In this document: piece by piece, positions 2,737-62,010 of the stretch
Numbering within the stretch: the first letter of the stretch is position 1
Layout of the letters: every line of letters starts with the position of its first letter
The notes under the pieces: model-generated
Seen by the model: the letters and a program-made list of their open reading frames with translations, nothing else
The model's database searches: none
What the model was told of the DNA's origin: nothing
Origin: Lobosporangium transversale
Taxonomy: Eukaryota
NCBI RefSeq assembly: GCF_002105155.1
Contig: NW_019029001.1
Span: 434,001-498,000, forward strand
Reading direction: 5' to 3'
DNA: 64,000 bases
Program-made: the position numbers and the translations under genes

Positions 2737-3396
2737 CCCGTGCAAATAACTTCATCCAAAAAGATTGCGGATTAATCTATTTGGCAGCCCAGTTGCTAAA
2801 TATTATTTGGCAGCCCATACCAAATATAGTAATTTTTGCCTCTATTTGGCAGCCTACTTCTGGGGGCTGCCACTTAACTTCGCACTCTTGGGTGGCAGCT
2901 GGGCTGCCAAATACAGACTTTTTTTTTTTTTTTTTTTTGATAACAGGGTCATAACATCAGTGGTAAAACAAGCAGCGTTCTGTGGATACATTGCCTTGCA
3001 CAGCTAATGCCGCCGGAGGTACTAAGGGCAGCGGCGATGACACCTTCACAAAACAGCCTTCAATGTACACGGTTAGGGAATGATTTATTGAAGACGTCTA
3101 GGTAGCAGGTGAGACGCGTTTGCTCCGAGCGAAAACCTCTCATAGGCATTGATCTCCAAATGGCACCTCCAAAACTGTATGAGCGACCTACTTGAAGACA
3201 ATGTCACTACACATAACTATGACGTAGAAGACGGGAGCTTTATTAATTTGAAGTATGAGTGTTATAAACATATACGGTTCCTAGGAATGAAAAAAAAAAA
3301 AAAAAAAAAAAAAAATAGTTAGAGGCCAAGTAAATAATGAATGTTATTTGGCAACTGGGCTGCCAAATAGATTAAGGATGAAGCTATTTGCACGGG
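2737..3396. mobile_element. MITE-like element with nested terminal inverted repeats
   Basis: Inner IR TTAATCTATTTGGCAGCCCAGTTGCTAAATA (2772-2802) / TATTTGGCAACTGGGCTGCCAAATAGATTAA (3345-3375); outer IR CCCGTGCAAATAACTTCATCC (2737-2757) / GGATGAAGCTATTTGCACGGG (3376-3396); internal TATTTGGCAGCC repeats. Confidence 0.7.
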
Positions 3397-3560
3397 CCCG
3401 TACACCCCTTATTTGTACGGCCCCCGTGCAAATAAATTTTTACTTATAAAAAAAATTATTTGCACTGCCCCGTACACACTCTATTTACACTGCTCCCCCC
3501 GTACAAATAAAAAAAAGTTATTTGCACGGGGGGTCTTTTTTTTATTTGCACGGGGTCTCT
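3385..3560. repeat. Array of TATTTG(C/T)ACGG motifs in both orientations
   Basis: Several direct and inverted copies; the same motif occurs at ~830-895, 2737-2748 and 10921-10970. Confidence 0.8.
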
Positions 3561-3879
3561 TTTTCATCTACAAGCAGCAACGTGTATCCTACAGACTACA
3601 TGATTCTGGCTTTATATAAATAAGTGGAGGTGAGTCTAGAGTAGAGAGGGGCCTGGAATTATTACTGGTGGAAGTTGCAGCGCCGTGGGAGCTGCCAAAC
3701 AGCTCATTTGTGACATACAAAAATACTACCATTAGACCCATATAGCGTATACGATGATTTAAATTACCACTCACGTGGGGCAGACAAGAACCCTCTCTTT
3801 GTCCTCCTTCTTAGTTGGTGCAATGTTTTAACCTAATTGATATAACTTACTATGTATGTAATATGGAGCTAAAGTTCAA

Positions 3880-4928
3880 TAAATTTACCCTTTTATTAAT
3901 GAGGCAATGTGGATAATCACTGAAGTTTTTGGGCAGTACAGGCTGAGGGAAAACGGCAAGAAATAAGATTGAAGACAGTGCTTCTCTTCATTACCATTTC
4001 AAGTGATTGTACAATATGAAGCTGGTCCTTTAGACGCAGTGAGCATCTACATGTGCTGCTGAGTATGCAATACTGCGTGCTAAAGACGAACCAAGGTAAG
4101 TTGGCTATGATAATAAACTTGGAATGTAATGAGACAAAACTAAGGATTGTTGCGATTAGCAGTCATTTATATGGGTTTTTACTATAGCTAAGGTTTTTAC
4201 CCTTTTTATTTAACGAAGATCCCTGGATCATAATAAAGACACCTTTCTTTCGTTCTCGCTACTTATTATGACCCTGGCATATTTCAATAACAGAAAAGAA
4301 TATTTATGTCTCTTTTCTATCACTATTAGTCACGGTTATGCTATTAAAGTATTTTAGCCACTTAGATATAGAGATATAGGTGATTGTGGCACGATCGGCT
4401 TTGAGTGCGAACTGTCACCAACTATCAAAAGACAAGTAATATCGGGTAAGAGGATAGATATTCCACAAAATAAGCTGAGGTCTACCCATTGTATTTTGAT
4501 GAATTTGATAAACAAAATAGTACCGAGGGCGCTTGAGTTCTTAATAAAGGACGACAGAGATAAGGACATCTAAGAGGAAAGAAAGAGACTAGTAACATGG
4601 CGCGCTATGCATCATAGCAATGAGTATGGTAGTATGATTGGTTGTACATCTACCGACACAAACTACACGTTAGAGATTCCTAATAACTGAATTCATCGTT
4701 GTGTGCTTAATAGTGTACGGAAATACCCAAGATGTATGCACGCGTTAAATGAAAGAAAGCATCGGGGAACCATAACAATGCAACCAACAAAAGTGCAAAG
4801 TAAAGCTGCATAGTATATTTCAACTATAGATAAATCATTTGTAATTCTGTATTTAGTCCCAGTCGCATAAAGAATGCCAACATCTACTCTGAGCTACATA
4901 CGAACTTGATAAGATATTCTGGTCAGTA
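3880..4928. repeat. Arm 2 of the diverged long inverted repeat
   Basis: Reverse complement of ~965-1935; homology stops abruptly at ~4928. Confidence 0.85.
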
Positions 4929-5221
4929 GCGTGCACAGGGTCACAAAATTTTTCCTGTGATCCTATATATGTCGTCACATGATATTTCAGTCCTCCCTTT
5001 TTGATTTCCATCTATCTATCCGTATCATTCTCTTATGGTGAGTTCCTTGCGTCAATATGAATCACAAATATAGCTATTCATTTATTATATTTTAAAATAA
5101 GAATCAAAAATGGATAACATTCTCTTCCTATTTGCAAGGCGCATTGTGGCTTTGCGCTATCGCCATCCTTTAAAATACTCGCTCCATTGAAACTATTGAA
5201 ACAAACAATCATAACACTACC

Positions 5222-7090
5222 ATGGCCACCGAAGTAACCCTCTTTTGCGTTATCGATGGAGATTCCTCCATATTCTCAGTGGATATCTCCTCTTCAAAAA
5301 CGATAGACCATCTCAAGGATGCCATCAAGAAAAAGCAGCTAGAGTTTCATGATATTAATGCAAGCAAGCTCACTCTCTGGCATGTCGCCATTTCTTCTAT
5401 CTCCAAGAAACCAATTACATTAAGCAATCTTACAGACGAGCAGAAGGCGCAGAAAAACCCAGAGAAGCTCGAAGATCCGACTAGCGAGGTCTCTGAGGTT
5501 TTTGGCGCTGTACCACCAAAAAAAACCATCCATGTCATTATTGAACGACCAGGTACTATTCCACTCTACTGGTATGCCTTTTTTTTTTGTCCACAGTTAA
5601 CTATGATTAAACAAGTCATACGCACTTTCTATTTGTATTCCTTTCTCCTAAGTTAAAAGTGAAGGGAATGAACCTATAATCGCAAGTCTACAGACGACGA
5701 ACGCAGATCTACAAAAGGAAATCGCCGACTTGAAGCAACGACTGCATACGAACGCAAATTTAGGAACGATGATCGTAACTTTAGAAACGACAATCGCAAA
5801 TTTAGAAACGATAATCATAAATTTACACAAGGAAATGACCGACCTGAGGCAACAAAAACTGCATATGGAAGCAGATTTAGAAATGGTACAAAAGAAAAAC
5901 GCCGAATTGGAGCAACAACTACAGGCGGACACATATACTAGTAAGTGATAATCAACAATAAGTGAGAATGTGGAATGGAAAGATGTCGAAAGGAACCATA
6001 GTGAAAGAGAGCTGACTTTGTTGTTATTCTAGCACTGAGCGTCGTGAACAAAAGAGATCGGAATAAGGTTATTTGCACATATTCCACCAATATTAAATCA
6101 GCTACTATAGGAAGCCTGCGAGAAAGCCTTCGAGATTATTGCTTGGAGTTTGAGGAGTTCGAGGAAGTCCAAATATTTGTGTACGATGAGGAAACGAAGA
6201 CATTTCCGTTGTTGAGAGACGACATTCAATTTCGTTCTATCTTGGAAAAACTTCAGCAAAAAAAGTGGAAAAGGCTCATTATATCTTTGGCTACCCCAGC
6301 CATTAGTTTTTCGTCATGGGACTGGAAAAAAGTTCAAGACACGTATAAATTACAATCGTTCATTGATCTACCAAAATTTGATCTCAAGCCCAAGGAGGAC
6401 TTGACAGAAGCTGAAGAGACAATATTGGGACATATTGTGGACGATTGCATTCGCAAAGGTAGAGCCTATGCATTTAATGCACAATCAAATGAGGCTACAA
6501 GATCAACAATTGTCGATGCATTCATGGTTGGAGCAGTATCGCTCTATGCGCCCGACATGATCCTTTCGCAACAACAGTCTTTGAAAGGCACGCGCGGCTA
6601 TGGGACTTTGGACTTTGCTGTTGTTGACTGTATCAATTCGGGACAATTTCTTGGCATTACGGAAGTGAAGAAGGACGATCATGTGCAAGGCCTTGCACAA
6701 AATATGGTACAGCTCGATGTAGCCTTGCACAATAGGAAACGAAAACGAACTGAGGAGGATGGAGATTGCCCTAGAGCCCTTAGGGCTTATGGAATCGTAA
6801 CCAACTCATTTCAATGGGCATTTGTTGAATCTACATTGGAAAATGGCACGCTAAAATACCGAAGGTTGGAACTGACTAAATCTTTAGAAGTGATAGGAGA
6901 AATGGAAGACGTGAGAGACAGATGCAAGCTTATATTTGGCTATGTCCTTACTCTTTTCGAATTAATGAAGAATGAAATGAGCACGAGAGGTAGTTTCAAC
7001 ATCGAATCTGACTCCCCAGCAACCAAAAAATCAAAATTTGATCAGTCATCAACAGCAACGATAACAACACCAATAACAACAACACAATGA
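5222..7090 (+). CDS. Crinkler (CRN)-like protein, ~558 aa: ubiquitin-like N-terminal domain, coiled coil and PD-(D/E)XK-like C-terminal domain
   Basis: Exons 5222-5552, 5653-5940 and 6033-7090 join in frame via GT-AG introns; motifs TLFCVIDG, TIDHLKDAIK, LTLWHV, HVIIERP; C-terminal GTLDFAVV..ITEVKKDD..QGLAQ. Confidence 0.85.
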
Positions 7091-7253
7091 TATCCGCTTA
7101 AAATAGCATACAGCAGTTTTGTAATAAATAATATTCCAATATCATCAGTTGGAAGCTTTCAAGTAAAATGGAGTGACACTTTAGAAGTGTCTAACGAAAC
7201 GCCTTCAACGGTGTGGTTTATTTTTATTTTAAAGAAATATATGTATAAACACA

Positions 7254-10200
7254 TTACTTAAAAGCTTTTTTTCTTTGTGCTCGACGCATCTTAATGTAGG
7301 AATTGTTGGAGCCAGCGTTGATGATAGCCTTGGAAACTGACGTCAGGGCATCAGCTTCCTTTTCCACTAACGTCATGCATGTTGATTTTGATATCTCTTC
7401 TAGCACAGCCTCAATTAGTTCCTTCTTGAATTGATACAACTTCCTTTTCTGTGCATCGAATCCTGAACGCCATTTTGCTCTTTTTTGGTCAGAGCTCTTA
7501 TTCAAAGCCCAGATCGAGGGCCGTCCATCGACACCATGGAACCATTCCTTCCATTGATCCTTGAGAAGCGCTGCTTGCGGAAGCATTTCGTGCGAGGACA
7601 GGGTTGTTCCAATCTGAACGTAGAGCATGGCGATCTGTTCTGCCAACTGGTCCAAATCAACTCTACCTTGCATACCAGACTGAGATTGAGGTTGAGATTG
7701 AGAGTGAGCTTGTCTTTGTTCTACAACTACTTCTTCTTCTCTTTCTCTCGCTCCGTCTACTTCATTGAAGAATGAATCCTCGCCTTGTAAAGGTGAAGAG
7801 GTGTTGGTAACGCTCGCTTGCTCATGAGCCGGCTCATGGCTAACCAGGTGCCCGTCTGTGTGCCCTTGCTCCGGGGTGAATGGGCTCCTCTGTCCTGCTC
7901 CACATCCCTGCTGTATCTGGAGATCGAACTCTCGTATTTGCTCTCTTTGGATTGATTTGATCTCAGATACAGTGTGGCCTATAGTTCTTCCTGCACCATT
8001 GAAGGCCCCCTCTATCCCTTGAGAGAGTGCCACTAGCTGACGATTGACACTTGACATATGCGTCCTGAATGAAGAAGTCAAGTTACAGTTAGATGTATCA
8101 ACGCGTTCTCGTGATCGTATGAAGTCATCAAGAGCTGAAAGCTGTGCTCCTAAAACATCAAGTTTCTGTGCTATTGCGGGAGCGTTTGCTGCAAGGCTAT
8201 CCATCGAGGGAGATCTTGCCTCACTCATTGTTTGGCGCAACTTTGCACTAAACTCTCCGAACTCTGGCGATTGAAAGACTGGCATCTGGCAGATATGGTG
8301 CATCCGGTAAATCTGGTAATAGCAATTAGCATTGTCGGTAATTTCCATAAGTACAGCCATATCCTGAAGAATAATCTTCCGAAAATGAGCAAGAATAATA
8401 TTAAAGCGTATTTTTGGTATTTCCTCCTTGCAATGGCTTGTTTGTTCCAAAAGGGGTCGATTGTAGTCCTCGGGGCGGTCCATCATGATATTCTCAATGC
8501 GCTGCTCCCAGTCTTTGTTTCCTTCAAACAGGTTCTCAATGAAAGGAAAAATCATTCTCTGAAGTTTGGGATCAGGAATAAGTGTGTTGCGAGGAAGCCA
8601 GAATTCCTCATCAGTTCGCGTGAAGCCTGCCATCGAATACGGAACAGCTCTTGGAACTGGATGTAGGTAATGGATCGCCAAGCGAGAATGAAGCCAATTG
8701 CCTTGCTGAGATATCTGGTCATGCGATGATCCATTGAGCATCGCGTGTTGTGCTCCAGCTTTGCGGCCCGCATGAGTAACTTTATCACTATGATGGCCTG
8801 CCTTATTCATAACCCCTTTCATAGCCCTAAGAGCAAGAAGTCGCGAGGAAGCGTCAATCCATCAATTACTATTGCACTACCATACAAAGCCATGTATACC
8901 CTGTACTTACTTGTAGAGTGAGGTTGAGGACATACGGGTTCTATCAGAAGCGCCGAAAATGAGGAAAGTTTCCATCCATTTGTCGTCATGAAAGTCAGGA
9001 ACGTTTTTTTTGTCCTACAGTCAAAAGTTACGAATAATAATAGATGTGAGCAATCGAATGTCGGTACAGCCCCGAAACATTAAACAGAAAAAGTATCAGG
9101 AACTAACCATCCATAGCTCTAATAGATAAAATCCTAAGGCACCTAAAGGACACAGCTCAACATCTTTATTGCGAATACAAGACGAATAGATAGTGAAGTC
9201 CTGATTTGTCTTGCCATGTGTAATCTCAAGAACAAGGGCAAAAGAAAGCTGGCGCCCATTCTCAGCCGTTGCATGGATATGTGGGAACAGGCTACTCAAT
9301 TTCGCATCAAGTAAATTTTGGCCACGAGCAATCAAAAAATGATTCAAGGCAAAGCTAACTCGGTCGCGAGCCCCAAGCAGCTTGTGAGTCTTAGCTCCAC
9401 CATTCAGAGGTTTGTAAGATCGAGTCCAACAAAGTTTCAAGAACTGCTTGAGTTGAGCTGGTGTGTATGCATTGTCGACCGACATTCGATATTGGTTCTT
9501 GAATTTATTGCTTTGTTGATACCTGCAGAACAGCAATTAGGGCAATTAGCAATATGCAATATTATATGTTTTAAAACAACATCCACTCCTTCAATTTTCA
9601 GGCCTCAAAGTTAAATAATACTACATTATGCTGCTGTCTACTCCTACCTTTTTCTGTATGATGAAATGATCCCTCTGAACTCGGCTGTACGTAGACTTGC
9701 CCATGGCTGGTTGCTAGGGTTGGGAACTAATGCTCGCTGAGACTGATAGAGCGATATGACCGACTTGACATATGCATCAACTGTCTCTGGAGAAGGGAGA
9801 TCACCTTCATAATCTATTGTGACGTTGACACGCAATGGCTTGATGCTATAGAAGTCGTCCTCCGCCTGTACTGATTCTTCTGCCACAAGTTCACGCACAT
9901 AGAGTAAGAATTTCTCGTATGTGACCATGTCTCCATCCATGAAATGCTTACGCTCGCACCAATCCTATATATATTATGGATCAATTAATTGCTACCAATA
10001 AACATTATTTTTTGCATTGCTCAACTACTATTCAAATAAGCTCACGCACCACCCAATGCCGTTGGTATTGTTGATAATGATACACTGTTCGACGTGCTAG
10101 GGATTTTTCACGATCCTTAGCTGCCTCCTGTAGGACCAACGTACAAGCTATTTTGTTATGGGTGGCATATGCTGTCTTGTTCGCCATGGATGCAACAACA

Positions 10201-10648
10201 TCAGCTCTGCTCGCAGCTGCTATAGGTTGACCTTTGCGTCGTTTAGGAGTTGCCGGGTTTTCTTGTAGCGTTATATGCCGCTTTTGGCTTTGAAGTCCTT
10301 GTTCCTGAAATTGGAATTGATCTTGGAATTGTACCTGAAATTGAATTTGATTTTGGAGTTGGGGCATGTGTATGTGTGAATCTAACTGTTGTCCTAAATA
10401 CTGACCAACATTCTGTGGTGATTCTAATTATAATTTCAAGAGTTCAAGAGTTATTATTTGGTTTTCTTTCTTTAAAGGATCAACAGCAAGCGACGACTAT
10501 TGTTTGTATATAATATAATGCTGAATAACGAATGTGCTCACCAAACCAGCCTTAGTCCGCCAGCGATAGAGAGCGATAGGCTACCTTGAAGAGGACTTCC
10601 TACACTATTCTGTGCATTGGTTGCATTAGATGTGAATAGCGCTTCCAT
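7254..10648 (-). CDS. Crypton-type tyrosine recombinase (Ndc10-domain-II-like) with C-terminal GCR1_C domain; first exon uncertain
   Basis: Exons ~10423-10050, 9964-9647, 9523-9108, ~9014-8911 and ~8826-7254 splice in frame; motifs ARGQN (R), HGKTNQ, THAGRKAGA (HxxR), GNW..LAIHY (W, Y); GCR1_C-like QWKEWFHGVDGRPSIWALN..KWR. Confidence 0.85.
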
Positions 10649-11011
10649 GTTATTTAATGCTGAGTGGTGGGGAATGAAGGGGTGGGTGAAGGGAGAAGTG
10701 ATAAAACAAGTTAAGAAAAATGTTTGCTTATCCCTCTCCATTAGTGCAAGTCATATGCGATGGCCTTTCCAAATTTACACATCTACACAAAAACGGTATT
10801 CAGGCTAAATCACGCTGGAGATCACATTCTATATATTTTGTCAATTTTTTATATTACTTTTCTTTGTGATTCAATAAAAAGAAACAAGGTTTGTGACCAC
10901 ATAATTTCAAAATACCAATTCAGTGCAAATAGATTTTTTAAATATTTGTACGGCCCCCGTGCAAATATCTTTTCTTAATCCAAAGATTGCTAGGATGCCT
11001 TAAGGCAAAAT

Positions 11012-11082
11012 TGAAAGTGCCGGGACTCGAACCCGGTTCTCAGGCTTGGAAGGCCGGAATGATACCCATATACTACACTTTC
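11012..11082 (-). tRNA. tRNA-Gly(TCC)
   Basis: Acceptor GAAAGTG/CACTTTC plus discriminator A, anticodon loop CT-TCC-AA, T arm CCGGG-TTCGAGT-CCCGG, downstream TTTT terminator; one mismatch in the anticodon stem. Confidence 0.85.
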
Positions 11083-11095
11083 TTGTAGTTGAAAG

Positions 11096-11654
11096 TGTCG
11101 TAAATGACGCCTATTCATTTACCTAAATATGTATTTCCTTTCAATTTATTTATTTCCTATCATCCTATTTTCTACCATTTTTAAATAGTATTTAAGTAGC
11201 TTTTTCCTTCACTGCAAAAACGGCATCTCTCTTCTTATTATCGATGCCCTTTTGCAGGTGAGTTTATCTTCATTATTCTCATTATGAATTCTCAGAAAAT
11301 TAGCAGTTATTAAAGATCTCTCTTCTTATTATCGATGCCCTTTTGCAGCATCCTCAAAATCATTCAAAGCATTACTTAGGATCACTATCGTATCCCAAAA
11401 CCACGAGGCTCTTGCCCAATTCTTCATTTTTCATCATTACCTACTAGTTTCCAGAGATCACTAGTAGATGCTCTACGACAAATGGTAGCAAAGGTTCTTT
11501 TAACCTCTAACGCGACCTAGTTACTACTCCATTATTATTCTTCTTGACACTTTTTGATTGTACATATTCATCCTTTTGTTGTGATCATATTACAAACTTT
11601 TTGCTTTTCCTCAACCAAATTCTTTACCTTCACCACACACTTTTATTTTTCGCG

Positions 11655-11694
<40 letters not shown>

Positions 11695-14600
11695 AGCTTT
11701 CTTTTTCCGTTTCATTTATCTCTTTCCTTATTTGTTACCTTTTTACTTGTTTACACACATTTTTATTTATTCATCCCCTTATTTGCCCTTTTTTTCAAAC
11801 AAAGACCTTTTATTTATCAACAATGAAACCCCCATCCAATATCAACGTTCAAAGCACCGCAAGCTCCTCTACCACGACCACATCCTCCAATTCCTTTCTT
11901 GACACCGATGGTGATGTAAATATGGAAACTACAACCAATCAGCATTTTAATCTTGCAGGAATTGAACGATTCGATAGCAAGACGGATGTTTCATCCTGGT
12001 TACGCGCTATGGACGCTTTGTACAAAATTTCCAACGTCAATGATAACTTCTTTACAGTTCGTGTTGCTCTACATATGGAAAAGATCGCACGTGATTGGAG
12101 TCTTAGACACATTGACGATCTTGAGACTAAGAATATCCTCACTTGGAAAAAATTCGCTCAAGATTTTAAGGAACAATTTGCCAAGGCGGATGATGAGTTC
12201 GAGCTACGTTACAAGTACGACAATTTATCCATGAAACCGAACTCAGATGTTATGGAATTCGTCCGTGAGTTCGAGGCAGCATACTATCCACTTCGTGATA
12301 AAATTCCCGAAGGAGAAAAAGTATGGAACTTCCGTCGAGTCGCAGATTTATGGCTCCAGCGCAAGCTTCAGAAAGAGAACGCCACGACCTGGAATGAAGT
12401 CCTAGATGTTTGTCGCACAGAATCTCATAACTGGCACGCAAAGAGACTCTTAGACAAGGCATCAAGATCCAATGACAAACCTCATACTCCTCCTCCACAT
12501 CAAGCATCTTACAAAAATAATGACTTTGTCAGACATTCAGCCTCACATACCACTTATCATCGAAATAACTCTCATCAAAACAATTCTCATCAAAATAATT
12601 CACAACAACACCAAGACCGTCATCAAGACCGTCATCAAGACCATGACCATGTTGCGGAATCTACTATGGACATAGATTCCCTCAGAACAAGACGTCCACC
12701 TTGTCCTACTTGTGGCAGGCACGGCCATTCTGAGGTACAATGCTACAAAAACGGTGGCAATGGTCCCCGGTCATGCTATATCTGTGGCAAGACAGATCAC
12801 AAAGGGTACGCTTGCCCTACAAAGCCTGATAATAAGCCTGACAAATCTGCCCATGTTAATCAATTACAAGCTCATACCGTTGAGCCTATTACAATGACAG
12901 ATAAATCAGCACCACTAGAAGATCACATCAAAATGTTGCCTGAACAGATCTTCATCAAAACGAACGTCGGCTCAACTGAGCTGATTGCCCTTATCGACGG
13001 CGGATGCAATTGCAACGCGATCTCTACAACAGCGCTTAACAGGATCCGCGCATATGATCCTTCGCTCATAAAAAAAGAAACAAAACTCAATCGGCCAACA
13101 ATCGCCACTACAGCCAATCTTAGTAACGTAAAGTTGACAAGCTTAGTCACTCTCGTATTTACTATCGGCAACTTTACTCATGACGAGGAATTTTGCGTGG
13201 CTGATATCCTAAGTCAAGACATTTACCTTGGCCTGGTTTGGTTAAAGAAGTATAATCCAAATACTGATTATGTTCAAGGAACTTTGACTTGGACTGTGAA
13301 TGGAGCATCATACAAGGCTTCTTCCAAAGACTCATCCCTAAAGGTTCTTTCTTCGGAACCTCAAATGGATTCGTTGTGTACTCATCGAGCCATCCAGCGT
13401 GCTGTGTCAAATCAACAAGACCTGGGTTTGGTTTTTCTTCAAGATGAACAATCGACTCCGAAAATTTCTGCTCTTTCGTTAGCGGAAGTTATTAAAGACA
13501 ACAATATTGATCCTACACTACAGAAGCTTTTATACGAATATGAAAATTCTGTCTTCACTCCATTGTCGACTCTACCACCACAGAGACCTCAAGATCATCA
13601 CATTGATACAGTAGACGCACGCCCGATCTATAAGCGAGCCTACAAGATGTCCCCAAAAGAGTTGTTAGTTTTAAAGCAACAACTTGATGATTTACTTAAG
13701 AAAGGCTTTATCAGACCTTCCATTTCCCCGTGGGCATCCCCTGTTCTATTCGTGACCAAGAGCGATGGTTCCCTCCGGCTGTGTATTGATTATAGAGCTT
13801 TGAACTCAATCACAATCAAGAATAGGTACCCACTTCCCTTGATCGAAGAATTTTTCGATCGATTTACTGGTGCTACTGTTTTCTCCAAGCTAGACTTAGA
13901 AAGTGCTTTTAATCAAGTGCGTATTCACCCTGCAGACATTCCAAAAACTGCTTTCAATACAAGATATGGCCATTTCGAATACGTAGTCATGCCTTTTGGT
14001 CTCACAGGAGGACCTGCTACATGCCAGACTTTAACCAATGATGTCTTAAAGGAATTCTTGGACAAGTTCGTTGTTGTCTTTTTAGACGACATCCTTATTT
14101 TCTCTTCTTCTATGAAAGAGCATGTTCAACATCTCAAGCTGGTTCTAGAAGCTTTGAAATCGGCTTCCCTTCACGCAAAGCCCAGCAAGTGTACCTTTGG
14201 TGTATCTGAAGTCAAATTCTTGGGTCATGTCATATCCTCTCGAGGTATTGAAGTCGATCCAGACAAGGTTGCAGTCCTTAAAGATTGGCCCACTCCATCC
14301 AATGTTCAAGAATTACGCTCATTCTTAGGCTTCACAAATTACTACAGGCGATTTATACGCAACTTCGCCAAGATTGCAAGCCCCTTGACTGATTTATTAA
14401 AGCAAGAAGGACAAAACAATGCCAAAAAGAGACCTTTACCACAATGGACTCCTAGCCATCAAGCAGCCATGGACAAGTTGATTCAATTGCTTACCTCAAC
14501 ACCAGTTCTTTACCCCGGAGACTTTTCTAAGCCATTTTTTGTGGAAACTGATGCCTCTGACATTGCTACAGGAGCAGTTCTTTCACAAATGATCGATAAC

Positions 14601-16840
14601 CGTCTTCACCCGGTTGCTTTTGTGTCACACAAGCTCTCTAATTCTGAGAAAAATTTTCCAGTCCATGAAAAGGAACTATTGGCCATAGTCCGAGCATGTG
14701 GAGCATGGCGCTCTTACCTCTTAGGATCAGTAGTAACCGTCTTCACTGATCACGCTAGCCTACGCTTTTTATTTAATCAACCTCATCTGAGCGGTCGTAT
14801 GGCCAGATGGATTGAATTTTTGGCGCCCTACAATCTTGATATTCAATATCGTCGAGGTGTCGATAACTCAGCCGCAGATGCTTTGTCTCGTTTATCTACA
14901 CCAACAGTTGCCTCTCTTGCAACTACTTCATCTATAAAAGACTTTGCCGCTGATAATGTTGACTGGCCTTTATACATCTATGCCTATTTCAAGGATGGAT
15001 CCTTACCTGAAGATGATGAATCTGCTAAACTAGTAAGAGATGAAGCAATTCATTTCCAAGTCGATCACGATACTTTGTGTCGTATAACAGAACACGGCCC
15101 AGTCCCATTTGTTCCTTTCGTCAATCGAGCTGATACTCTATATATGTATCATGCTGGCTTTGGTCATCTTGGCCGAAACGGCTTATTCGATCTGGTTTCA
15201 ACTCGTGTATGGTGGCCAACCCTTCGTGCTGATATTATAACAATGGTCTCAGCTTGTCCTGAATGTCAGCTGTTAGCCCGTCAAGATGCCACTGTTGCAC
15301 CTCTACATCCTCTAGAGCCTACCTTGCCCTTTCAGCGCTGGGGAATGGACTTCATAGGAGCCCTACCGAAAACCAAGAATGGCAATCGTTGGATTATCAC
15401 CGCAATTGATTATGCTACCAACTGGCCCTTAGCCCGTGCTGTGCATGAAGCGACTGCATCGGCAGTTGCTGACTTTATTTATGAGGAAATTTTTATGCAG
15501 TTTGGATGTCCATCTGAAATTGTCACAGACCGTGGATCAAATTTCACGGCAGCGACCTTACAGCGATATATGAATCGGATGGGTACGAACCATCAACTAA
15601 CATCTGCATACCATCCCCGAGCCAACGGAAAGTGCGAACGATTTAACGGCTTATTAGGCACAATGATTAACAAGTTTGTCGGAAATCATCGTACAGCTTG
15701 GGACAGATACATTTTACAAGCCTTATTCGCATGTCGAGTTCGTATACACTCTATCACTAAAGTGTCACCTTTTAAACTGGTTTATGGTCTAGATCCAGTT
15801 ATCCCTGGAGATACTTCTCACCCTCATTTATTCGACTTCATAACGGAAGATGATTACTCAGCTTACAGACAACAACAGTTTGATCAGATTGATGAAATAC
15901 GTCGCAAGGCACATGGTCTACAACAGAAAGCAGCAGATCTTATGGCTTCTACCTATGACAAGCAGAATGAAATCGACGAAAATAAATTTCTTCCAGGTGA
16001 TGCTGTCCTTGTGAAGCACTTCGCTAAGAAGAAATTTGATCAAAGTTTTTATGGTCCCTTACGTATTGTTCGAGCAACGCCTCTACATACCTTTCAGCTT
16101 GCATGGCCTGACGGTACGATAAAAGCTGACTTAGTCCATCAAGATAGATTGAAGAAGGCTGTTCTAGTCGATAACGAGATGCCTAAGGCGCCTTGGTATA
16201 AACCAAAAAGCGCTTCTGATGAATTTTCTATGGATAATTCCATGGACGGATCACCCATTGAACTTGATCCAGTAACGGCACAAATTCAAGATGCTGCACG
16301 ACAACGTGTAGCTCAAGAGCAGTTCATCGCTGATCGTGATGCTGTAGCTCCTCCTTCTCCTATCATTCCTCCAGCAAATACTGCTGAGATTTATCAGAGA
16401 GAGCTACGGCGTTTATCCAGGCACTCCAGGAGTAGTGCCAATCCGAATGGAGGGGTGTCGTAAATGACGCCTATTCATTTACCTAAATATGTATTTCCTT
16501 TCAATTTATTTATTTCCTATCATCCTATTTTCTACCATTTTTAAATAGTATTTAAGTAGCTTTTTCCTTCACTGCAAAAACGGCATCTCTCTTCTTATTA
16601 TCGATGCCCTTTTGCAGGTGAGTTTATCTTCATTATTCTCATTATGAATTCTCAGAAAATTAGCAGTTATTAAAGATCTCTCTTCTTATTATCGATGCCC
16701 TTTTGCAGCATCCTCAAAATCATTCAAAGCATTACTTAGGATCACTATCGTATCCCAAAACCACGAGGCTCTTGCCCAATTCTTCATTTTTCATCATTAC
16801 CTACTAGTTTCCAGAGATCACTAGTAGATGCTCTACGACA
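11096..16840 (+). mobile_element. Full-length Ty3/gypsy LTR retrotransposon (family A)
   Basis: 385-bp TG..CA LTRs at 11096-11480 and 16456-16840, identical by eye; 4-bp TSD AAAG; PBS TGGTAGC at 11483 (iMet-type, as in Ty3); PPT GAATGGAGGGG. Confidence 0.97.
11823..16463 (+). CDS. Single-ORF Gag-Pol polyprotein (two zinc knuckles, PR, RT, RNase H, IN)
   Basis: CPTCGRHGHSEVQC and CYICGKTDHKGYAC; LIDGG; MPFGL and FLDD; TDAS; integrase H..H..CPEC, GMDF, TDRG and E; order PR-RT-RH-IN; no chromodomain seen. Confidence 0.96.
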   Translation: MKPPSNINVQSTASSSTTTTSSNSFLDTDGDVNMETTTNQHFNLAGIERFDSKTDVSSWLRAMDALYKISNVNDNFFTVRVALHMEKIARDWSLRHIDDLETKNILTWKKFAQDFKEQFAKADDEFELRYKYDNLSMKPNSDVMEFVREFEAAYYPLRDKIPEGEKVWNFRRVADLWLQRKLQKENATTWNEVLDVCRTESHNWHAKRLLDKASRSNDKPHTPPPHQASYKNNDFVRHSASHTTYHRNNSHQNNSHQNNSQQHQDRHQDRHQDHDHVAESTMDIDSLRTRRPPCPTCGRHGHSEVQCYKNGGNGPRSCYICGKTDHKGYACPTKPDNKPDKSAHVNQLQAHTVEPITMTDKSAPLEDHIKMLPEQIFIKTNVGSTELIALIDGGCNCNAISTTALNRIRAYDPSLIKKETKLNRPTIATTANLSNVKLTSLVTLVFTIGNFTHDEEFCVADILSQDIYLGLVWLKKYNPNTDYVQGTLTWTVNGASYKASSKDSSLKVLSSEPQMDSLCTHRAIQRAVSNQQDLGLVFLQDEQSTPKISALSLAEVIKDNNIDPTLQKLLYEYENSVFTPLSTLPPQRPQDHHIDTVDARPIYKRAYKMSPKELLVLKQQLDDLLKKGFIRPSISPWASPVLFVTKSDGSLRLCIDYRALNSITIKNRYPLPLIEEFFDRFTGATVFSKLDLESAFNQVRIHPADIPKTAFNTRYGHFEYVVMPFGLTGGPATCQTLTNDVLKEFLDKFVVVFLDDILIFSSSMKEHVQHLKLVLEALKSASLHAKPSKCTFGVSEVKFLGHVISSRGIEVDPDKVAVLKDWPTPSNVQELRSFLGFTNYYRRFIRNFAKIASPLTDLLKQEGQNNAKKRPLPQWTPSHQAAMDKLIQLLTSTPVLYPGDFSKPFFVETDASDIATGAVLSQMIDNRLHPVAFVSHKLSNSEKNFPVHEKELLAIVRACGAWRSYLLGSVVTVFTDHASLRFLFNQPHLSGRMARWIEFLAPYNLDIQYRRGVDNSAADALSRLSTPTVASLATTSSIKDFAADNVDWPLYIYAYFKDGSLPEDDESAKLVRDEAIHFQVDHDTLCRITEHGPVPFVPFVNRADTLYMYHAGFGHLGRNGLFDLVSTRVWWPTLRADIITMVSACPECQLLARQDATVAPLHPLEPTLPFQRWGMDFIGALPKTKNGNRWIITAIDYATNWPLARAVHEATASAVADFIYEEIFMQFGCPSEIVTDRGSNFTAATLQRYMNRMGTNHQLTSAYHPRANGKCERFNGLLGTMINKFVGNHRTAWDRYILQALFACRVRIHSITKVSPFKLVYGLDPVIPGDTSHPHLFDFITEDDYSAYRQQQFDQIDEIRRKAHGLQQKAADLMASTYDKQNEIDENKFLPGDAVLVKHFAKKKFDQSFYGPLRIVRATPLHTFQLAWPDGTIKADLVHQDRLKKAVLVDNEMPKAPWYKPKSASDEFSMDNSMDGSPIELDPVTAQIQDAARQRVAQEQFIADRDAVAPPSPIIPPANTAEIYQRELRRLSRHSRSSANPNGGVS

Positions 16841-34058: not shown

Positions 34059-35800
34059 TTTTTTTTTTTTTTTTTTTTTTTTTTGATAACAAGGACCCAC
34101 GAGGTCATGTAGGATTTATTTAGATGATTTAGATGTTAGCTCTATAAATGGGTTGCCCCATTACTGGGGTCGCAAATAAAGCGGTATCCAATAATCGGCC
34201 GAAGCCGCATCGTCATACTGCCACAGTACTACATCCTGTTCATAAACCACGTCAGCATTGAGTAGACTTCCTTGGTCCCAGAGGACCTGTGGCACGGCTC
34301 TACTCCCTACTTGGCCTGTTGTGCGCGAAGGTCATCCTTTAGCCGCTGTCCTCAATCATCAAAAATTTACAGCTTTCCAGGCGCTCCATAATCGCCAATT
34401 CCACCTGCTGCCGGTAGCTTGCCGCCACTCGCCGGTCTGCCTCAGTCCTGATCACCTTCACATCTGCTGTTCGTCGTTGTCCCTGGTGAGAGCCAAAGAA
34501 TTCACCTCTGCTACGTCTGTGCCTCCCAACACAGTTGCGTCCCCTGGCGCGTTTGCTCACAGAGGTGATACCATTGTCTCTTTCCCAGTTGACGGTGACT
34601 TTGCAGCGTCTGTTCCAGATTTCAGTCCTGCCGAGTTCCTCGATTGACTTGACAAAGCGGCAAACAATGTACCTTGAGATCGATGCTGTGGTTCTGAAGA
34701 TCGTCTTCCATTTTTGTATCAGTTCCTTCGGCACCAAACCGTGGTACAAGTCTTGGACAGTCCAGTGGGCATCCTCACCCTCGTTCCTCCGTCCCATATC
34801 CACATCTTCCTCACCAAACAGAGTGCTCGCATGTCGAATCTCTCTGACGCCCTTGAACATCGCTTCCAAAGAGCCCCAAATCACGTTGTCGGCTACAGGT
34901 GTAAACGAGGGGCCTCCTTTATTCAGGTTTGGCTCCTGTGTTTTCCCTTGTTTGTCTTCCCAGAGCTTCTTCTCCTTCACTAATGCTCTTTTGCCATCCT
35001 TCGTGATGAGTTCTATGGCCTGCTTCCAACCTTTCAATTGCTCGTCCAGTGTCATGGGACATCGCCAGAGGTGTTCTATATCCTCCTGCTCCTGTTCACA
35101 CATCCTGCAGATGTCAGTCTCATACAGGTCCGGTCGCCACTGCCTCATATAAGTGAGTGTAGGAAGCATACCATGGACCTTCTTTATTCTGTGCGCTCTC
35201 TTGTGACAATCTGCTGGGCTGGTGAAGAGGCCTCTAAGCGTGTTGCCATCGTGAAGAATATGCAGGCTTGCTTTCCATTCTAATTCTCGCCAGTCTGTAA
35301 TATAATTCCTGACTCTGTTCTGAGACGCCCACAAGTAATGTGTTCTCACTACTGATTGGAGTTTTAGCAGGTGTCTAAGATCATCCTCCACCACCTCGTT
35401 CTCGAAAATAGCGTGACAGCGCAGATCGTTGTGTTCCAGTCCTTTGATTGTCCACATTTCGCTAAAATGAGCATCTTTGGCGGCTTGGTCTGCCCTTATA
35501 TTGCCTCTATTCCCAGCATGGCCTTTGACCCATTTCACAGTTACCTTCCCGCCCTGCTTAAAGAGCGCTCTCGAAATGGCTGCCCACCACACTGCGTACT
35601 TGGATCGCAATCGCTGCCGTTCAGTGCTTGTTTCTCGCTTTTGAGCAAGGTCCTTGAACTGAACCACTACCGCCATGTTGTCTATGTAGACAGTCGTTGG
35701 AACGTTACGGGGACTGACTAGGATGGCTGCGTACAGTCCTACTAGCTCTGCCTTGGTGGATGAAGCATACCCATCGACTCTACCTGGCGATCTTGTAGAT
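34059..35800 (-). mobile_element. 5'-truncated L1/Tx1-like LINE retaining RNase H and a C-terminal zinc-binding domain
   Basis: Open frame 34339-35811 with RNase H motifs (SSTKAEL, YIDN, KWVKGHAGNRGNIRAD) and CRMC..EDIEHLWRCP; 3' UTR and poly(A) at 34059-34084. Confidence 0.9.
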
Positions 35801-37079
35801 CGAAGAGCCATGATATTTGAATTTTGAATTTTCTCTGCATTTTCTATAAGTGCACAATGCTCAAATCACGTGATAAGAACACTTAAAGGGAATATGGTAG
35901 TCTTGAATAAACTTCTGTAAAACCGCAATTGATACTTTTGCTGCTTTCAGTCTAATCCTCTGCACCTAAAAAGTAGCAGTGAAAATGGCATGCAAGCAGG
36001 CTTGGGTTCTACTCCCAGGTGAAAAAAAGAAGAGTAATGCAAGAAGCGGTGACACGGAGTCTCGAAGCGGCATGGGCTGATTAAATCCACAGCTCTTCTG
36101 TCGTCAATAGTACTTCCAAGATCAGAAACAATGCCTCAGGTCAGCCGTCGCTCGAATGCAAACCGCGATATTCTATTAACCAAGGCATCGAACATTTTTA
36201 GCCTTTTTCTGACTCAGTTATCATGAACGAATGAATATGAACACTTTTATTCTTGCTCACTGTGTCAAAATTCTCAGATCAATTGTTTCTCTCATTACGC
36301 ATCATTTTCTCAGGTTAGCACTAACCCTCGCTCCTAATTCAATTAAAGACGTTTTTATTTATTTATTTTTTTTGCGATGAATATATTATCATAATTTTAG
36401 AGGACTATGGATGACTGTGAGTAGCAATCAAAATGAATGATGTTCATTAATGATCGTAATGCTTGATTAAAAAGAGAAATGAGGGGCCCTCTATTTATTA
36501 AATGTTGAACTCAACTTTACAAATTTATACATAGACTTTATCTGTTTAGATCATGTTTGTATCTTGCTGCGTACAAGATCAAGCATGCGTTCGTTGACAG
36601 CGAAGACGTTTTACTTTAGATGGCACTACCTTCCCTAGACAGAGCGCGTATTTGGTGTATATATTTACTAATCAAGATGCATGGATGATTGCTGAGTCTT
36701 GAATGTCTGAACATTGGCAATACGTTTGCGGGCGTTTTCTTAGCGCAATTCCTTCATCCACTACCTAAAAAAAGAAAAAAAACCTGGATGGCAGTAATGA
36801 AATGACATCTCTTCTTGCTATGTGCGTGTGGCATTCCAATATATAGATATGTATTCTAACAGCCTTTTAGAGTCATACTTTTGACCTTTGAAGAAGTTTG
36901 TTCTGGATAATAAAAAAACTGTCAGTCTAATATGTCATCTATTTGCTGCTAGGTGCCGGTGCAAATGTCAAGGAAGACAATTCTCTCACAGTACGAAAAG
37001 GATAAAAAAGCGAAGACGCGTGGCACTTGATCTAGATTGCAAAAGCTCCAATTAAACAATTATGATGTAGAAGGGTTGT

Positions 37080-37565: not shown

Positions 37566-38258
37566 AGACGTGGCTGTGAAAGATTAGTAACTCCTAACTC
37601 GTCTAAGGGTGTTTGCTTACACGCATATTTTCTAGACTACACTAATTTATATGGATTTTCTGTAGTTCCTTGATTCCTCCTCAGCCTCCAATGGTGCTTG
37701 ACGTTTGGTGCGCAATGGACAACTGTCTTTTATCCATGGATATGCTCCATCCTTGTCTGTTGGCTGAGGGTAGAGGGTCGCTGTTGGTATATTAGATGAC
37801 TTCAGACGACGTTGTCTCTGATCATGAAAAACAAGGATCCCTTGCAAGCACATGTAGGTTGCAGGAAGGGTCCGCGATGGATTCACTGTCAAACGCACGC
37901 AATACTGCACCTGCATGTACCCAACTCGAGTAGGCCCGAAACACGGCCGATATCAATGATCATCTTGGACGGTCTCTCGAAGGCTTTCTCTCATCATTTC
38001 TGCTACGACAACTAAGAGAGAGCTGAAGAGAAGGAAAGAAAAAAGAATAGAGCGAGAGGAAGCTGCCGCTGAATTGTCTAGATAGAATAATAACGAGATG
38101 ATGGACGTATGGAGGAGAATGGGCTCCTTTGCGATTGATGTAAGTATAACGCGACTTCCACATAGGGAAAGGCAAGCTGTTGCAGATCTACAGAATATGG
38201 TTCGTAAACTAGAACCAAGTAATAAATCAGCTGACCCCTTTGTTTTCGGCCAAGATTT
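37566..38258. repeat. Dispersed ~0.7-kb repeat, copy 1
   Basis: Reverse complement of ~51711-52419; the ~600-bp core looks identical and yields identical ORF-track peptides. Confidence 0.9.
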
Positions 38259-51710: not shown

Positions 51711-52419
51711 AATCTTGGCCCAAAAACAAAGGGGTTGGTTGATTTCTTTTTACAGCCAGTTTGTTCAGGCGCTTGCACACTGATTTTGTTCTAGTTTACG
51801 AACCATATTCTGTAGATCTGCAACAGCTTGCCTTTCCCTATGTGGAAGTCGCGTTATACTTACATCAATCGCAAAGGAGCCCATTCTCCTCCATACGTCC
51901 ATCATCTCGTTATTATTCTATCTAGACAATTCAGCGGCAGCTTCCTCTCGCTCTATTCTTTTTTCTTTCCTTCTCTTCAGCTCTCTCTTAGTTGTCGTAG
52001 CAGAAATGATGAGAGAAAGCCTTCGAGAGACCGTCCAAGATGATCATTGATATCGGCCGTGTTTCGGGCCTACTCGAGTTGGGTACATGCAGGTGCAGTA
52101 TTGCGTGCGTTTGACAGTGAATCCATCGCGGACCCTTCCTGCAACCTACATGTGCTTGCAAGGGATCCTTGTTTTTCATGATCAGAGACAACGTCGTCTG
52201 AAGTCATCTAATATACCAACAGCGACCCTCTACCCTCAGCCAACAGACAAGGATGGAGCATATCCATGGATAAAAGACAGTTGTCCATTGCGCACCAAAC
52301 GTCAAGCACCATTGGAGGCTGAGGAGGAATCAAGGAACTACAGAAAATCCATATAAATTAGTGTAGTCTAGAAAATATGCGTGTAAGCAAACCTTAGACT
52401 AGTTTTCACAGTCACGTCT
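51711..52419. repeat. Dispersed ~0.7-kb repeat, copy 2 (inverted), in a divergent intergenic region
   Basis: Reverse complement of 37566-38258. Confidence 0.9.
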
Positions 52420-52539: not shown

Positions 52540-55277
52540 ATGGCGAATTCCAGTAACAGCTCTCGTGCCAACTCACCGAGCGCTACGAGCGAAAAAACGC
52601 GTTGTACCATTTTTCGGAAGGAGTATGAATACAGTACGTACATTTCTCATCATAAAAGAAACAAAAAAAAACACTATGAAGTTTTTGTATGAAGTTTTGA
52701 TTTTTACATACACTCATCACAGTTTTTTTTTTTTTTTTTTTTTTATAAAAAAACACCAGACAGGGCCAAGAATGTTTTCTCAAAGCCAATCATCAAGCCA
52801 GCTCTGTCTGACACTCGGCCGGTGAATGTCCTCAAACTCCTGATCCAACAGCGTGAGCTGGAGAAAGAAGCTGCTCTCAAAGCCGAGATCGTCAGTAGCA
52901 AAGACGCTTCCGATAACGAGGATGCTGAAGACAACAAAGAAAACATGTGAGCAAATTATGAAACGGTTGTTTAATTTAATTATACTACGGTAACATCTTT
53001 AATTAAACACGTCTTTCTCGTATACATTAACGAATGATGAATAGTGATAATATTCAAAAGGTTCGAAAGGAACGTGTCTTTGAGCAGGATGTTACTGAGA
53101 AGGAGATGGATATCATTCAACAGCGTATTGCGTTTCAACAGCGTCAGGTAAGGAGATGGTAGAGATAGCATTCGGTAACTCTGGCCTTGTCATATTTTGG
53201 TTGTTTCCATAACCCATTCTTATATCTGGCGTGTCCCATCCTTTTTTAGTTCGCTGCCTTTGAAGAGAGAGAGAAGCAGCGACGCTATAAGAAGTTCAAG
53301 CAGCATTACGGGTACTTGGTTGAGGCAGAAATTGATGAAGCCTACGAGGACTGCAACAATGATGAAGACGATGCCTTTGTTCAATTCAGCACTCGTGGCT
53401 ATCTAGAGAAGATCCGCCGTACAATCGCCATCCGCAACCACAGGCCTGCAACAATCACTGTCATGGATGATCAGCAACGCGCTCGTTATGAAGAGCATCT
53501 GAAGAAGCGCCGCGAGGCACCTCGTATGCGTACTACAACTGCACAAAAAAAGTAAGGCTTTTGCTTTTTCTTTATTTTTTACCATCAAAGTTAGGCTCCA
53601 TCCTGAGTCGAAAAAGTGTCAAGCCACACGAATTCACAAATTTCAGTTTTTCCTTTTTTAGAAGTCAGCATCGTTCTTTTTCTTCGAGGGCTGGTACCAA
53701 ACTTGTGAATTTTGGCTGGCATCTTTAAAAAGGAAGGTTGTTAAGGGTTTTACATATAAAAATTTCTCCTCCATCTCATGTAAATTTATATGTAAAACCC
53801 TTAACAACCTTCCTTTTTAAAGATGCCAGCCAAAATTCACAAGTTTGGTACCAGCCCTCGAAGAAAAAGAACGATGCTGACTTCTAAAAAAGGAAAAACT
53901 GAAATTTGTGAATTTGTGTGGCTTGACAGTTTTTCACTTTTTCGATTCATGATGGAGTCGAGCCTACCAACTTAGAATATATTTTTCTCACGAAAATACT
54001 TCTATTTATAGGCAATATCGCATGGGTGGCCGCTTGGGCTTAGATGAAGCACTTAAGCAGGTGCAAGAAAACACAGTCGATGCTTCCAAGGCCTTTGAGG
54101 GTTGGTCTGATGCTCGCATCAAAGCTTATGCAGCTATTGACAAGAAGCCTAATACCTATTATTATCGGTTCAACGCACCTGGAGAAGTCCAACGCAAGGG
54201 TGCATGGACCAAAGAAGAGCAGAAGAGGTTCCATGAACGATTGGCTGAGATTGGTGCCAATGGGCAATGGGGGATTTTCTCAATGACCATCCCAGGACGC
54301 GTTGGTTACCAGGTTTGTCTTTTTTTTTCTTTTTTTTGCCTTATATATCCTGGTATAGAAGCATTGACTGATACCATATTTTTTTATCACGATGTACATT
54401 TTTGACTTGGCCAAAGTGTTCCAATTACTATCGCTTGCTTGTGGAGACAAATCAAATCCAGGACCCCAACTATGTATTAGATGAGAAGGGGAAAGCCCAC
54501 TATCTTTTTGATAAAAAGGGTGCAAATGGAGAGACGACTAAGGAGTTTAGGACACACAATAAGCACAACATTGGAGGAAGCGAAGAAAAACCGACTGTCT
54601 TGAAGCCACCAAAAGAGCCCAAAGCTTCCAAAGCTCCCAAAGAATCTAAACCACCAAAAGAACCTAAAGCTCCCAAGGCTCCCAAGGTCCCACGGGAGCC
54701 CAAAACTTCTGCCGCTGCTAGTCGAAACAAGCGTAAGAGACGCAGTCTCTATAATGATGATGACTCCTCTGATATCTCTGAGTTTGATTGCGATGATTCG
54801 GGATCCTACATGGCAAAGTGGAGCACAACGAAGCGAACACGTACTCGTGCAGCTAACGCCGCGAATGGTTCACCTTCTGGAGCTGGAGGAAGTGATGGCG
54901 GCCAGGAAGAGGAAATTGAAGGTGAAGAAGATGAGGATGCTTTGAACCCCCTTCCTAAATTCATTGACCCAATTACACTGGAGGTAGTGGAAAAGCCAGC
55001 CATTTCCAAGTATGGACATGTCATGGGCTATGATAGTTGGATTCGTTGTCTTTTACAAGACGGTGCCGCCAAAAATATTTGCCCGTTGACCAAGAAACCT
55101 CTAACGAAGCGCGATCTGACCATTTTAACTTTCGAGAACATCGAGGAATACAGGTAATAGTAACAAGAAAGATAGACTCTCGCGAGAAATTTACTGGCTG
55201 TGAGCATGCTAATAATTAATCGTCCATCATTTTCGTTATATTAAATTAAAAACAGGGACAAGATCGTCAATATGTAA
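52540..55277 (+). CDS. Myb/SANT-like and U-box/RING-like domain protein, multi-exon (5' exons approximate)
   Basis: KGAWTKEEQKRF..QWGIFSMTIPGRVGYQ|CSNYYR; C-terminal FIDPITLEVVEKPAISKYGHV..CPLTKKPL; KxP repeats. Confidence 0.75.
53594..53964. mobile_element. Intronic fold-back/MITE element with TA flanks
   Basis: 144-nt arms at 53617-53760 and 53785-53928 (one mismatch seen), 24-nt spacer; termini TA|GGCTC..GAGCC|TA. Confidence 0.9.
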
Positions 55278-58437: not shown

Positions 58438-58822
58438 TGTCGTAGAGCATCTACTAGTGATCTCTGGAAACTAGTAGGTAATAATGAAAAATGAAGAATT
58501 GGGCAAGAGCCTCGTGGTTTTGGGATACGATAGTGATCCTAAGTAATGCTTTGAATGATTTTGAGGATGCTGCAAAAGGGCATCGATAATAAGAAGAGAG
58601 ATCTTTAATAACTGCTAATTTTCTGAGAATTCATAATGAGAATAATGAAGATAAACTCACCTGCAAAAGGGCATCGATAATAAGAAGAGAGATGCCGTTT
58701 TTGCAGTGAAGGAAAAAGCTACTTAAATACTATTTAAAAATGGTAGAAAATAGGATGATAGGAAATAAATAAATTGAAAGGAAATACATATTTAGGTAAA
58801 TGAATAGGCGTCATTTACGACA
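58438..58822 (-). mobile_element. Solo LTR of Ty3/gypsy family A
   Basis: 385-bp reverse complement of 11096-11480 (one substitution seen), with a 4-bp TSD AGGA on both sides. Confidence 0.96.
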
Positions 58823-61855: not shown

Positions 61856-62010
61856 CAGAGCACCTTTCCTTCCTACCATAAATTTTTTAATAAAATTGTG
61901 GTTGCCTTTTGCAAATAAAGAAATACTTAATTTACTCAGCCAATTCGCAACGGTCAGTCCAACGGATAGGCCTATTCTCTTACTTTTATCTCCCCCTTCC
62001 CCTTCATCTA

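Follow-up and report, generated by a model that had tools for sequence, protein, structure and literature searches.

A CryptonF-type transposon that appears to carry a complete, spliced Crinkler gene in Lobosporangium transversale

Results

Two convergent, spliced genes between short direct repeats

We analyzed a 64,000-nt stretch of the Lobosporangium transversale genome (contig NW_019029001.1, positions 434,001 to 498,000; hereafter the window, whose own coordinates are used throughout), in which a tyrosine recombinase (YR) gene and a Crinkler (CRN) gene meet tail to tail in what is very probably one mobile element of the Crypton class. The initial annotation, made from the letters alone, had placed this element at 4929–10920, which is nearly right: the span is slightly wider, 4924–10924, with both boundaries on a CAGT direct repeat that the annotation had not named and that reads TCAGT in the window copy. 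The source of the window belongs to the Mortierellaceae, and a named L. transversale record (P0002) matches parts of the CRN protein encoded here at 100% identity (over 35 and 266 residues). L. transversale is a soil saprotroph.

Copy number was drawn from public sequencing contigs of two DNA runs (X2 and X3), and splicing from an RNA-type run (X7); a fourth run (X8) proved to be converted. On the unique flank, X2 and X3 contigs show 0 differences from the window, so both are probably the window's own strain rather than independent populations. The flank contig that serves as depth baseline has a depth of 9.5 in X2 and 10.3 in X3, with a second X2 contig at 8.06, and with so few baseline contigs depth is a rough measure (one contig table lists 32 pieces, with 1375 more beyond the listing). 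Since X7 has zero depth at 1–740 and 4441–5180, its spliced contigs are best read as mRNA; they show splicing and cannot rank expression. The features of the locus are as follows.

3374–4922, no strand: host repeat arm 2, left part; a noncoding high-copy repeat in which the element is inserted, its summed X2/X3 depth far above the unique flank
4923–4927, no strand: left terminal direct repeat TCAGT, with core CAGT at 4924–4927; X2 and X3 contigs both begin at 4924
4939–4947, plus strand: arm of a 9-bp subterminal inverted repeat, GGTCACAAA, 11 nt inside the left direct repeat
5222–5552, plus strand: CRN exon 1, Crinkler N-terminal domain ending in HVIIERP (PF20147, E 1.6e-23); intron joint in X7
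5653–5940, plus strand: CRN exon 2, heptad/coiled-coil region with 21-nt DNA repeats D1, D4, and D7; joints in X7
6033–7090, plus strand: CRN exon 3, with the next three features
About 6035–6295, plus strand: PB1-like domain in the predicted model (residues 1–87 of the model, Z 10.6)
About 6416–6979, plus strand: restriction-endonuclease fold in the predicted model, with E360, D400, E417, K419, and Q429
6737–6748, plus strand: basic KRKR cluster, a predicted nuclear signal
7091–7253, no strand: convergent spacer of 163 bp, with AATAAA at 7123 (plus strand) and 7217/7223 (minus strand)
7254–8826, minus strand: last YR exon, with H403-x-x-R406, W429, Y438, a linker, and GCR1_C (about 7386–7574)
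8911–9014, minus strand: YR coding exon 4; joints in X7, sites refined on the sequence
9108–9522, minus strand: YR coding exon 3, holding R278 and K316
9648–9964, minus strand: YR coding exon 2; joints in X7
10050–10423, minus strand: YR start-codon exon, with the start codon at 10367
10542–10674 (minimum extent), minus strand: YR 5' untranslated exon; joint 10423/10542 in X7, with 133 letters on its short side
10890–10898, minus strand: partner arm of the 9-bp inverted repeat, 21 nt inside the right direct repeat
10920–10924, no strand: right terminal direct repeat TCAGT; contig 16 of X3 matches as far as 10924 and continues with 349 other letters
10925–10988, no strand: host repeat arm 2, terminal piece, right of the element

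Both genes are intact, as had been proposed. The CRN reading frame is open across 558 aa to a TGA at 7088–7090, and the YR frame, running on the minus strand from 10367 to 7254, is open across 908 aa to a TAA at 7254–7256. All five YR introns are found as joints within one X7 contig which, with the two CRN introns, makes seven spliced introns in X7. The CRN introns are GT..AG joints that are unseen as joints in the DNA runs. A poly(A)-type signal accompanies each gene. Both ends of the element lie outside the CRN gene, whose start codon is preceded by about 295 bp, so the whole gene would be copied each time the element moves.

The CRN gene encodes a Crinkler header, a coiled coil, and a predicted nuclease

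The architecture suggested for the CRN protein (Crinkler N terminus, coiled coil, PD-(D/E)XK-like domain) is borne out. The header matches the Pfam Crinkler family PF20147 with 83.9 bits against a cut-off of 24.6, while the coiled-coil Pfam matches of the heptad-bearing exon 2 are weak, every one falling below cut-off. A Pfam scan of exon 3 gave no match. Its predicted model (pLDDT, the predicted local distance difference test score, 81) splits into a PB1-like domain and a restriction-endonuclease fold, with similarity to BpuSI (Z 14.3, root-mean-square deviation [rmsd] 3.0 over 155), DrdV (Z 12.3, rmsd 2.6 over 140), and HsdR 3h1t (Z 9.6). The top matches of the nuclease-region model (6035–7087) are mitoribosomal large-subunit chains (Z 15–16.5, about 216 residues), which outscore the true restriction enzymes. 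Mitoribosomal proteins of this kind are enzymatically dead members of the fold. As for the motif residues, E360 and D400 are kept in 21/21 homologs, K419 and Q429 in 20/21, and E417 in 18/21. The C-terminal region is a predicted nuclease domain with an intact E..D..EVK..Q motif.

In the basic cluster, K444 and R445 are present in all 21 homologs, and a crude hydropathy look at the first 35 residues found no long hydrophobic leader. Because the protein has this conserved KRKR cluster and no obvious signal peptide, it would most likely act in a nucleus. No kinase domain is present in any exon (Pfam) or in the exon 3 model.

The YR gene retains a complete set of active-site residues

The second gene was predicted to encode a YR with R, HxxR, W, and Y motifs and a GCR1_C domain, and all six active-site residues are indeed present. 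Among 20 aligned homologs, R278, R406, and Y438 are shared by 20, W429 by 19, and K316 and H403 by 18 (two homolog rows are gapped in the K316 column). NDC10_II matches stand above cut-off on two exons (E 6.1e-10 and 6.8e-08) and GCR1_C at the C terminus (34 bits against a cut-off of 23, E 3.7e-08). A search of the five YR frames against Pfam at E 0.1 returned these two families and no DUF3435. Sequence comparison with solved structures gave weak Cre matches (profile 26–67, E 0.21) and mainly coiled-coil noise. Homologs of the YR exons numbered 1 and 0 in word-index searches and 567 with HMMER at E ≤ 0.001. Four homologs are very long, at 1,576–2,546 aa, with NDC10_II as their sole domain match (P0034, from Linnemannia schmuckeri, and P0052, P0061, and P0088); these could be fusions or a distinct YR family.

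Both genes share the boundaries and depth of a probable multicopy unit

Contigs over the element have depths of 57–78, which is 5.5–7.9 times the unique flank in X2 and X3. At the left end, depth is 59.1/61.5 (6.2/6.0 times flank in X2/X3), over the YR gene 57.7/57 (6.1/5.5 times), and over the CRN gene 6.5–7.9 times flank. Depth is the same at the left end as over the YR gene, so most YR copies have the CRN side as well; recombinase copies ending near 7200 without the CRN gene, which the initial annotation had named as the case against its own reading, are not what the depth within this genome indicates. CRN depth is slightly above YR depth, and contigs break at 5255, 5619, 6722, and 7115–7211; close paralogs or partial copies may account for both. 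The listed element contigs, one unbroken over 3.7 kb, show 0 differences from the window. The family is likely young, with about six near-identical copies, with the proviso that the assembler may hide single-copy variants, which limits zero-difference contigs as evidence of age.

The ends are defined by where these contigs start and stop. Neighboring contigs overlap by 30 nt (k=31), and were the left flank common to all copies, the high-depth contig would be expected to begin at about 4899. Its actual start, in X2 and X3 alike, is 4924, which implies that element copies have different left flanks. On the right, the exit of X3 contig 16 at 10924 likely marks another insertion site rather than a tandem or circle junction, because 349 other letters follow and the 15 joints listed, of 48, include none from 10924 to 4928 (contigs drop rare forms). 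For two arbitrary window positions, the chance of four letters being alike is 0.5% and of five 0.14%. End-to-end self-alignments of the element gave best scores of 21–22 and revealed no long terminal direct or inverted repeats, the 9-bp inner inverted repeat being the only one. That repeat, GGTCACAAA, occurs as a single copy per strand within the element, and the pair is a candidate recombinase binding site. An internal copy of the predicted end-to-end junction was not found (best scores 20–21).

Together, a depth of about six times flank over both genes, contig ends on the terminal direct repeat, and splicing of both genes agree with the two-gene mobile unit first proposed. The depth boundaries on left and right, the direct repeat, the splicing, and the catalytic residues are its directly observed basis, and we hold it to be very probable that the two genes move as one Crypton unit.

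The element sits in a high-copy host repeat

The host sequence is noncoding (no coding remnant was found in six frames of repeat and flank) and forms two inverted copies in the window, 819–2537 (arm 1) and 3374–10988 (arm 2), which are 75–94% alike by segment. Its ends are built of repeated TTG(C/T)ACGG modules; 12 of the 15 motif matches in the window fall within these two intervals.

The initial argument from the two arms holds in part. Homology of 963–1613 to 4928–4288 (81%) does stop at 4928. The resumption claimed at about 10921 amounts to a match of only ~50 bp in 10921–10988, with a score of 47, on a motif that occurs 12 times between 819 and 10964, and 3410–3446 matches the same motif region with a higher score of 53. 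The short stretch of arm 1 said to face the element (~90 bp, 870–960) was found as about 96 bp (867–962) without counterpart. These lie between two CAGT-like sites and do not make a clean empty site. Given the recurring motif and the 96 unmatched bp, we rejected the arm comparison as proof of a clean empty/full pair. One X2 contig passes through 4928 into sequence that by eye resembles the arm 1 continuation, so host-repeat copies without the element do exist.

Run X8, which bears the same species label (share 0.00), was considered as an element-free strain and rejected, as it has both ends and a CRN piece; no strain free of the element turned up among the runs. In its pieces 4941–5137, 5798–6022, and 10701–10922, all C or G positions differ from the window, including 12 CpG sites, the difference counts equaling the number of C or G per piece (20/20, 32/32, and 27/27). 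X8 is read as a bisulfite-converted library, and neither as an empty site nor as repeat-induced point mutation. These counts, from three pieces, hint that the element is not CpG-methylated in the X8 library. A loose end of X8 before 7212 was disregarded, since three-letter sequence could produce such a match by chance.

Related Cryptons apparently lack a CRN gene, and the cargo nests in a host family

The expectation that YR and CRN genes co-occur among relatives was not borne out. Scanning metagenomes with the YR alignment yielded 15 loci whose best segments are 24–47% identical; two of these loci represent one element. None of the 15 matches the CRN exons, 22 CRN-family proteins, or two CRN profiles, and 53 selected frames from these loci contain no Crinkler domain. 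Six of the 15 are informative in that their sequence extends 750 nt or more beyond the YR stop, far enough to include the nuclease motif as it is placed here, and the pairing is found in 0/6. The closest metagenome Crypton (L001:168–11449, 47–49% identical) is split by about 9.4 kb that include a Gypsy element and unidentified frames; no CRN gene lies downstream of it. There is no Crinkler domain in the 31 YR homologs scanned, so none of these is a YR-CRN fusion, and no relative of the CRN nuclease was found in viral contigs. In the three named assemblies where YR and CRN matches both fall on longer contigs (EDD21, B0O80, and FBU30), the listed YR and CRN records lie far apart, a weak observation drawn from 20 of 150 listed YR matches, which are cluster representatives. 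The Crypton-CRN pairing is apparently lineage-specific and not general among relatives.

The CRN-nuclease family itself is kept in many Mortierellaceae with its motif intact. In a nuclease-domain tree the cargo pairs with an L. transversale paralog, P0006 (100/97), while 14 of the 19 inner branches are left open. Identity between the two is uneven, 94% in the header (111 aa), 60% in the coiled coil, and 54–67% in the C-terminal part; this fits the modular pattern of CRNs and a capture from the host family within the lineage.

Other mobile elements in the window

A full-length Ty3/Gypsy retrotransposon occupies 11096–16840, with identical long terminal repeats (LTRs), one 1588-aa stop-to-stop frame, and a 4-bp AAAG target duplication. 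It is inserted 13 nt upstream of a tRNA-Gly gene (11012–11082, minus strand), which suggests a recent, tRNA-targeted insertion. Elsewhere lies a solo LTR at 58438–58822 with an AGGA duplication. Further pieces of mobile elements are a 623-bp inverted pair at 37596–38218 and 51785–52404 (99%), a 360-bp palindromic element at 53596–53957, an RNase H-bearing frame at 34339–35865, and a zinc-knuckle frame at 61894–63675.

Discussion

CryptonF elements are defined by a YR with GCR1_C and by short terminal direct repeats (PMC3212892, Kojima & Jurka 2011). The window element resembles them in its intact YR catalytic residues, C-terminal GCR1_C, and multicopy state: it carries CAGT/TCAGT at contig-defined ends, in keeping with the 4–6-bp direct repeats and absence of long terminal repeats typical of the group, and contig depth together with contig ends places several copies at different sites. 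In the active element CryptonF-1_cRei the terminus is CACCG and the target CAYCG; its excision is clean, and it increases in copy number as well (PMC9977147). The window element departs from CryptonF in carrying, as its second gene, a complete one with introns from an effector-like host family. Additional genes or domains are known on Cryptons, namely a C48 peptidase, a DDE transposase (MarCry), and a helix-turn-helix (PMC3212892; PMC13465315), and a partial Crypton YR lies beside a Fanzor in MCi-2A (PMC3627910). CRNs have been discussed as transposable element-associated candidates in Rhizophagus (bioRxiv 10.1101/2021.03.30.436303), and PMC3522703 treats Cryptons and CRNs separately. We found no Crypton containing a CRN gene in the literature, although Repbase/Dfam, Goodwin 2003, Zhang 2016, and supplements were outside the search and could hold one.

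As in Starships, a YR gene at one end reads inward, an entire gene is carried as cargo, the direct repeats are short, and a short inverted repeat lies at unequal distances from the two ends (PMC11162782, PMC10104507, bioRxiv 10.64898/2026.09.21.753150). However, it is 6.0 kb long with one cargo gene, whereas Starships are giant and carry many; its YR combines NDC10_II and GCR1_C and has no DUF3435 captain match; and it lies outside Dikarya, where Starship YRs are reported to be absent. Like Crinkler/CR proteins, the cargo product has a header with an HVLVxxP-like end and a C-terminal restriction-endonuclease fold with an intact motif (PMC5289972, PMC6131194), but it differs in having a coiled coil and a PB1-like domain between header and nuclease, and neither NTPase nor kinase. 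Its gene, moreover, is inside a defined YR transposon, as opposed to the proximity to Helitrons described in Phytophthora infestans (PMC5289972). Spok proteins likewise combine a coiled coil, a PD-(D/E)XK nuclease, and a putative nuclear signal and are carried by a YR element, a single protein being both killer and antidote (PMC6660238). In contrast to Spok, the window protein has a CRN header and no kinase (resistance) domain, and a toxin role for it is putative. AACRNL offers another parallel as a CRN-like gene of a free-living eukaryote proposed to spread selfishly with neighboring transposons, but it is an ADP-ribosyltransferase with a decayed header in animals, whereas here a nuclease fold with an intact header sits in a Crypton (PMC12957317). 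Domesticated Crypton genes (Ndc10/Cbf2, Gcr1) have lost the catalytic site and are single fixed copies, as against intact residues and about six-fold depth here. The element thus has the defining features we tested of CryptonF and of CR proteins, and lacks those of Starships, Spok, and domesticated Ndc10/Gcr1.

Our preferred interpretation, held with moderate confidence, is that 4924–10924 is a CryptonF-type transposon with a whole spliced CRN gene that was likely captured from the host and is likely a passenger. We chose a captured passenger because relatives lack a CRN gene and the cargo nests in a host family; the larger share of our confidence in a single unit goes to a CRN gene that the element does not require. 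On this model, which follows the analogy with CryptonF-1_cRei, the recombinase would bind near the ends, possibly at the GGTCACAAA pair, and recombination between the two CAGT copies would release the element, probably as a circle, for insertion at another CAGT. Circular intermediates are reported in Starships (bioRxiv 10.64898/2026.09.21.753150); for Cryptons they are only a proposal. The CRN gene would have arrived with its own promoter, introns, and poly(A) signal and, not being needed for movement, would have gained copies by riding.

Several observations weigh against this interpretation. The insertion is not clean relative to arm 1, about 96 bp between the two CAGT-like sites being missing; this may be a recombinase-made deletion. 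Copy number is known from contig depth and contig ends rather than from a copy-by-copy listing, the baseline consists of a single contig in X3 and two in X2, contig depth is a rough measure, and the two runs, probably from one strain, do not sample independent populations. At 24–47% identity, the related loci say little about close sister families. The cargo has diverged by 33% from P0006 over the nuclease domain and yet is intact and spliced, which is hard to explain for a neutral passenger. P0006, whose contig is 3,066 nt long, could in turn be part of a sister element.

In one alternative, which we consider unlikely, the nuclease would work selfishly for the element by poisoning or driving against nuclei or spores that lack it. 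The PB1-like or the N-terminal ubiquitin-like domain would then be a built-in restraint, comparable to the union of killer and antidote in one Spok protein. The gene is spliced with its catalytic residues in place, its basic cluster is conserved, the crude hydropathy shows no long leader, and HsdR 3h1t, which appears in the fold list, is the best reported template of the Spok nuclease (PMC6660238). However, the 6 kb contain neither a kinase domain nor a third, antidote gene, and the pairing is absent from 6/6 informative relatives. We regard as somewhat less probable still that the unit is kept because extra CRN copies help the fungus against bacteria, fungi, grazers, or plant roots, as a miniature Starship whose cargo benefits the host. 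CR proteins share the architecture of a nuclease toxin domain behind a ubiquitin-like header (PMC5289972), most Rhizophagus CRNs also lack a signal peptide (PMC6131194), and many Mortierellaceae keep the family with its motif intact, but transposition alone explains the copy number.

It is improbable that there is no single unit at all, a Crypton having landed beside a resident CRN gene with depth arising from segmental or tandem duplication or from movement of the host repeat. The region does sit in a nest of repeats, its copies are seen only through contigs, and CRN depth slightly exceeds YR depth (6.5–7.9 versus 5.5–6.1 times flank). Yet both depth boundaries fall on CAGT, the contig start at 4924 and not 4899 excludes a common host-repeat flank, a different right flank exists, and close paralogs such as P0006 may add depth on the CRN side. 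Least credible is a nuclease that helps transposition by resolving recombination intermediates or nicking targets. Restriction-fold resolvases exist, but the CRN header of this protein is complete and the tree places it within a host family; relatives whose YR motifs are intact do without a CRN gene; and the structures it resembles most are those of mitoribosomal proteins and restriction-enzyme domains rather than resolvases.

A captured CRN gene in a CryptonF-type element is a single, lineage-specific case until sister families are found. Cryptons have been described as simple, and whole-gene cargo on YR transposons has been tied to the Starships of Dikarya; a 6-kb, CRN-carrying Crypton narrows that gap. 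It also offers a concrete mechanism by which CRN families could expand and be reshuffled in nonpathogenic fungi, and likely shows one way in which effector-like genes multiply outside plant pathogens. With a young-looking family, both genes transcribed, and ends defined to the base, excision, target choice, and cargo role are directly testable. If the selfish-toxin reading were true, the element would represent, in a fungus that is not one of the Dikarya, the minimal form of a YR transposon with cargo. It would also exemplify in a living system the proposed "transposons to toxins" path, and it is compact enough for reconstruction as a mini-element. More broadly, if the CRN nuclease does work for the element, Cryptons would serve the Crinkler genes of free-living fungi both as a vehicle and as an arena of selection.

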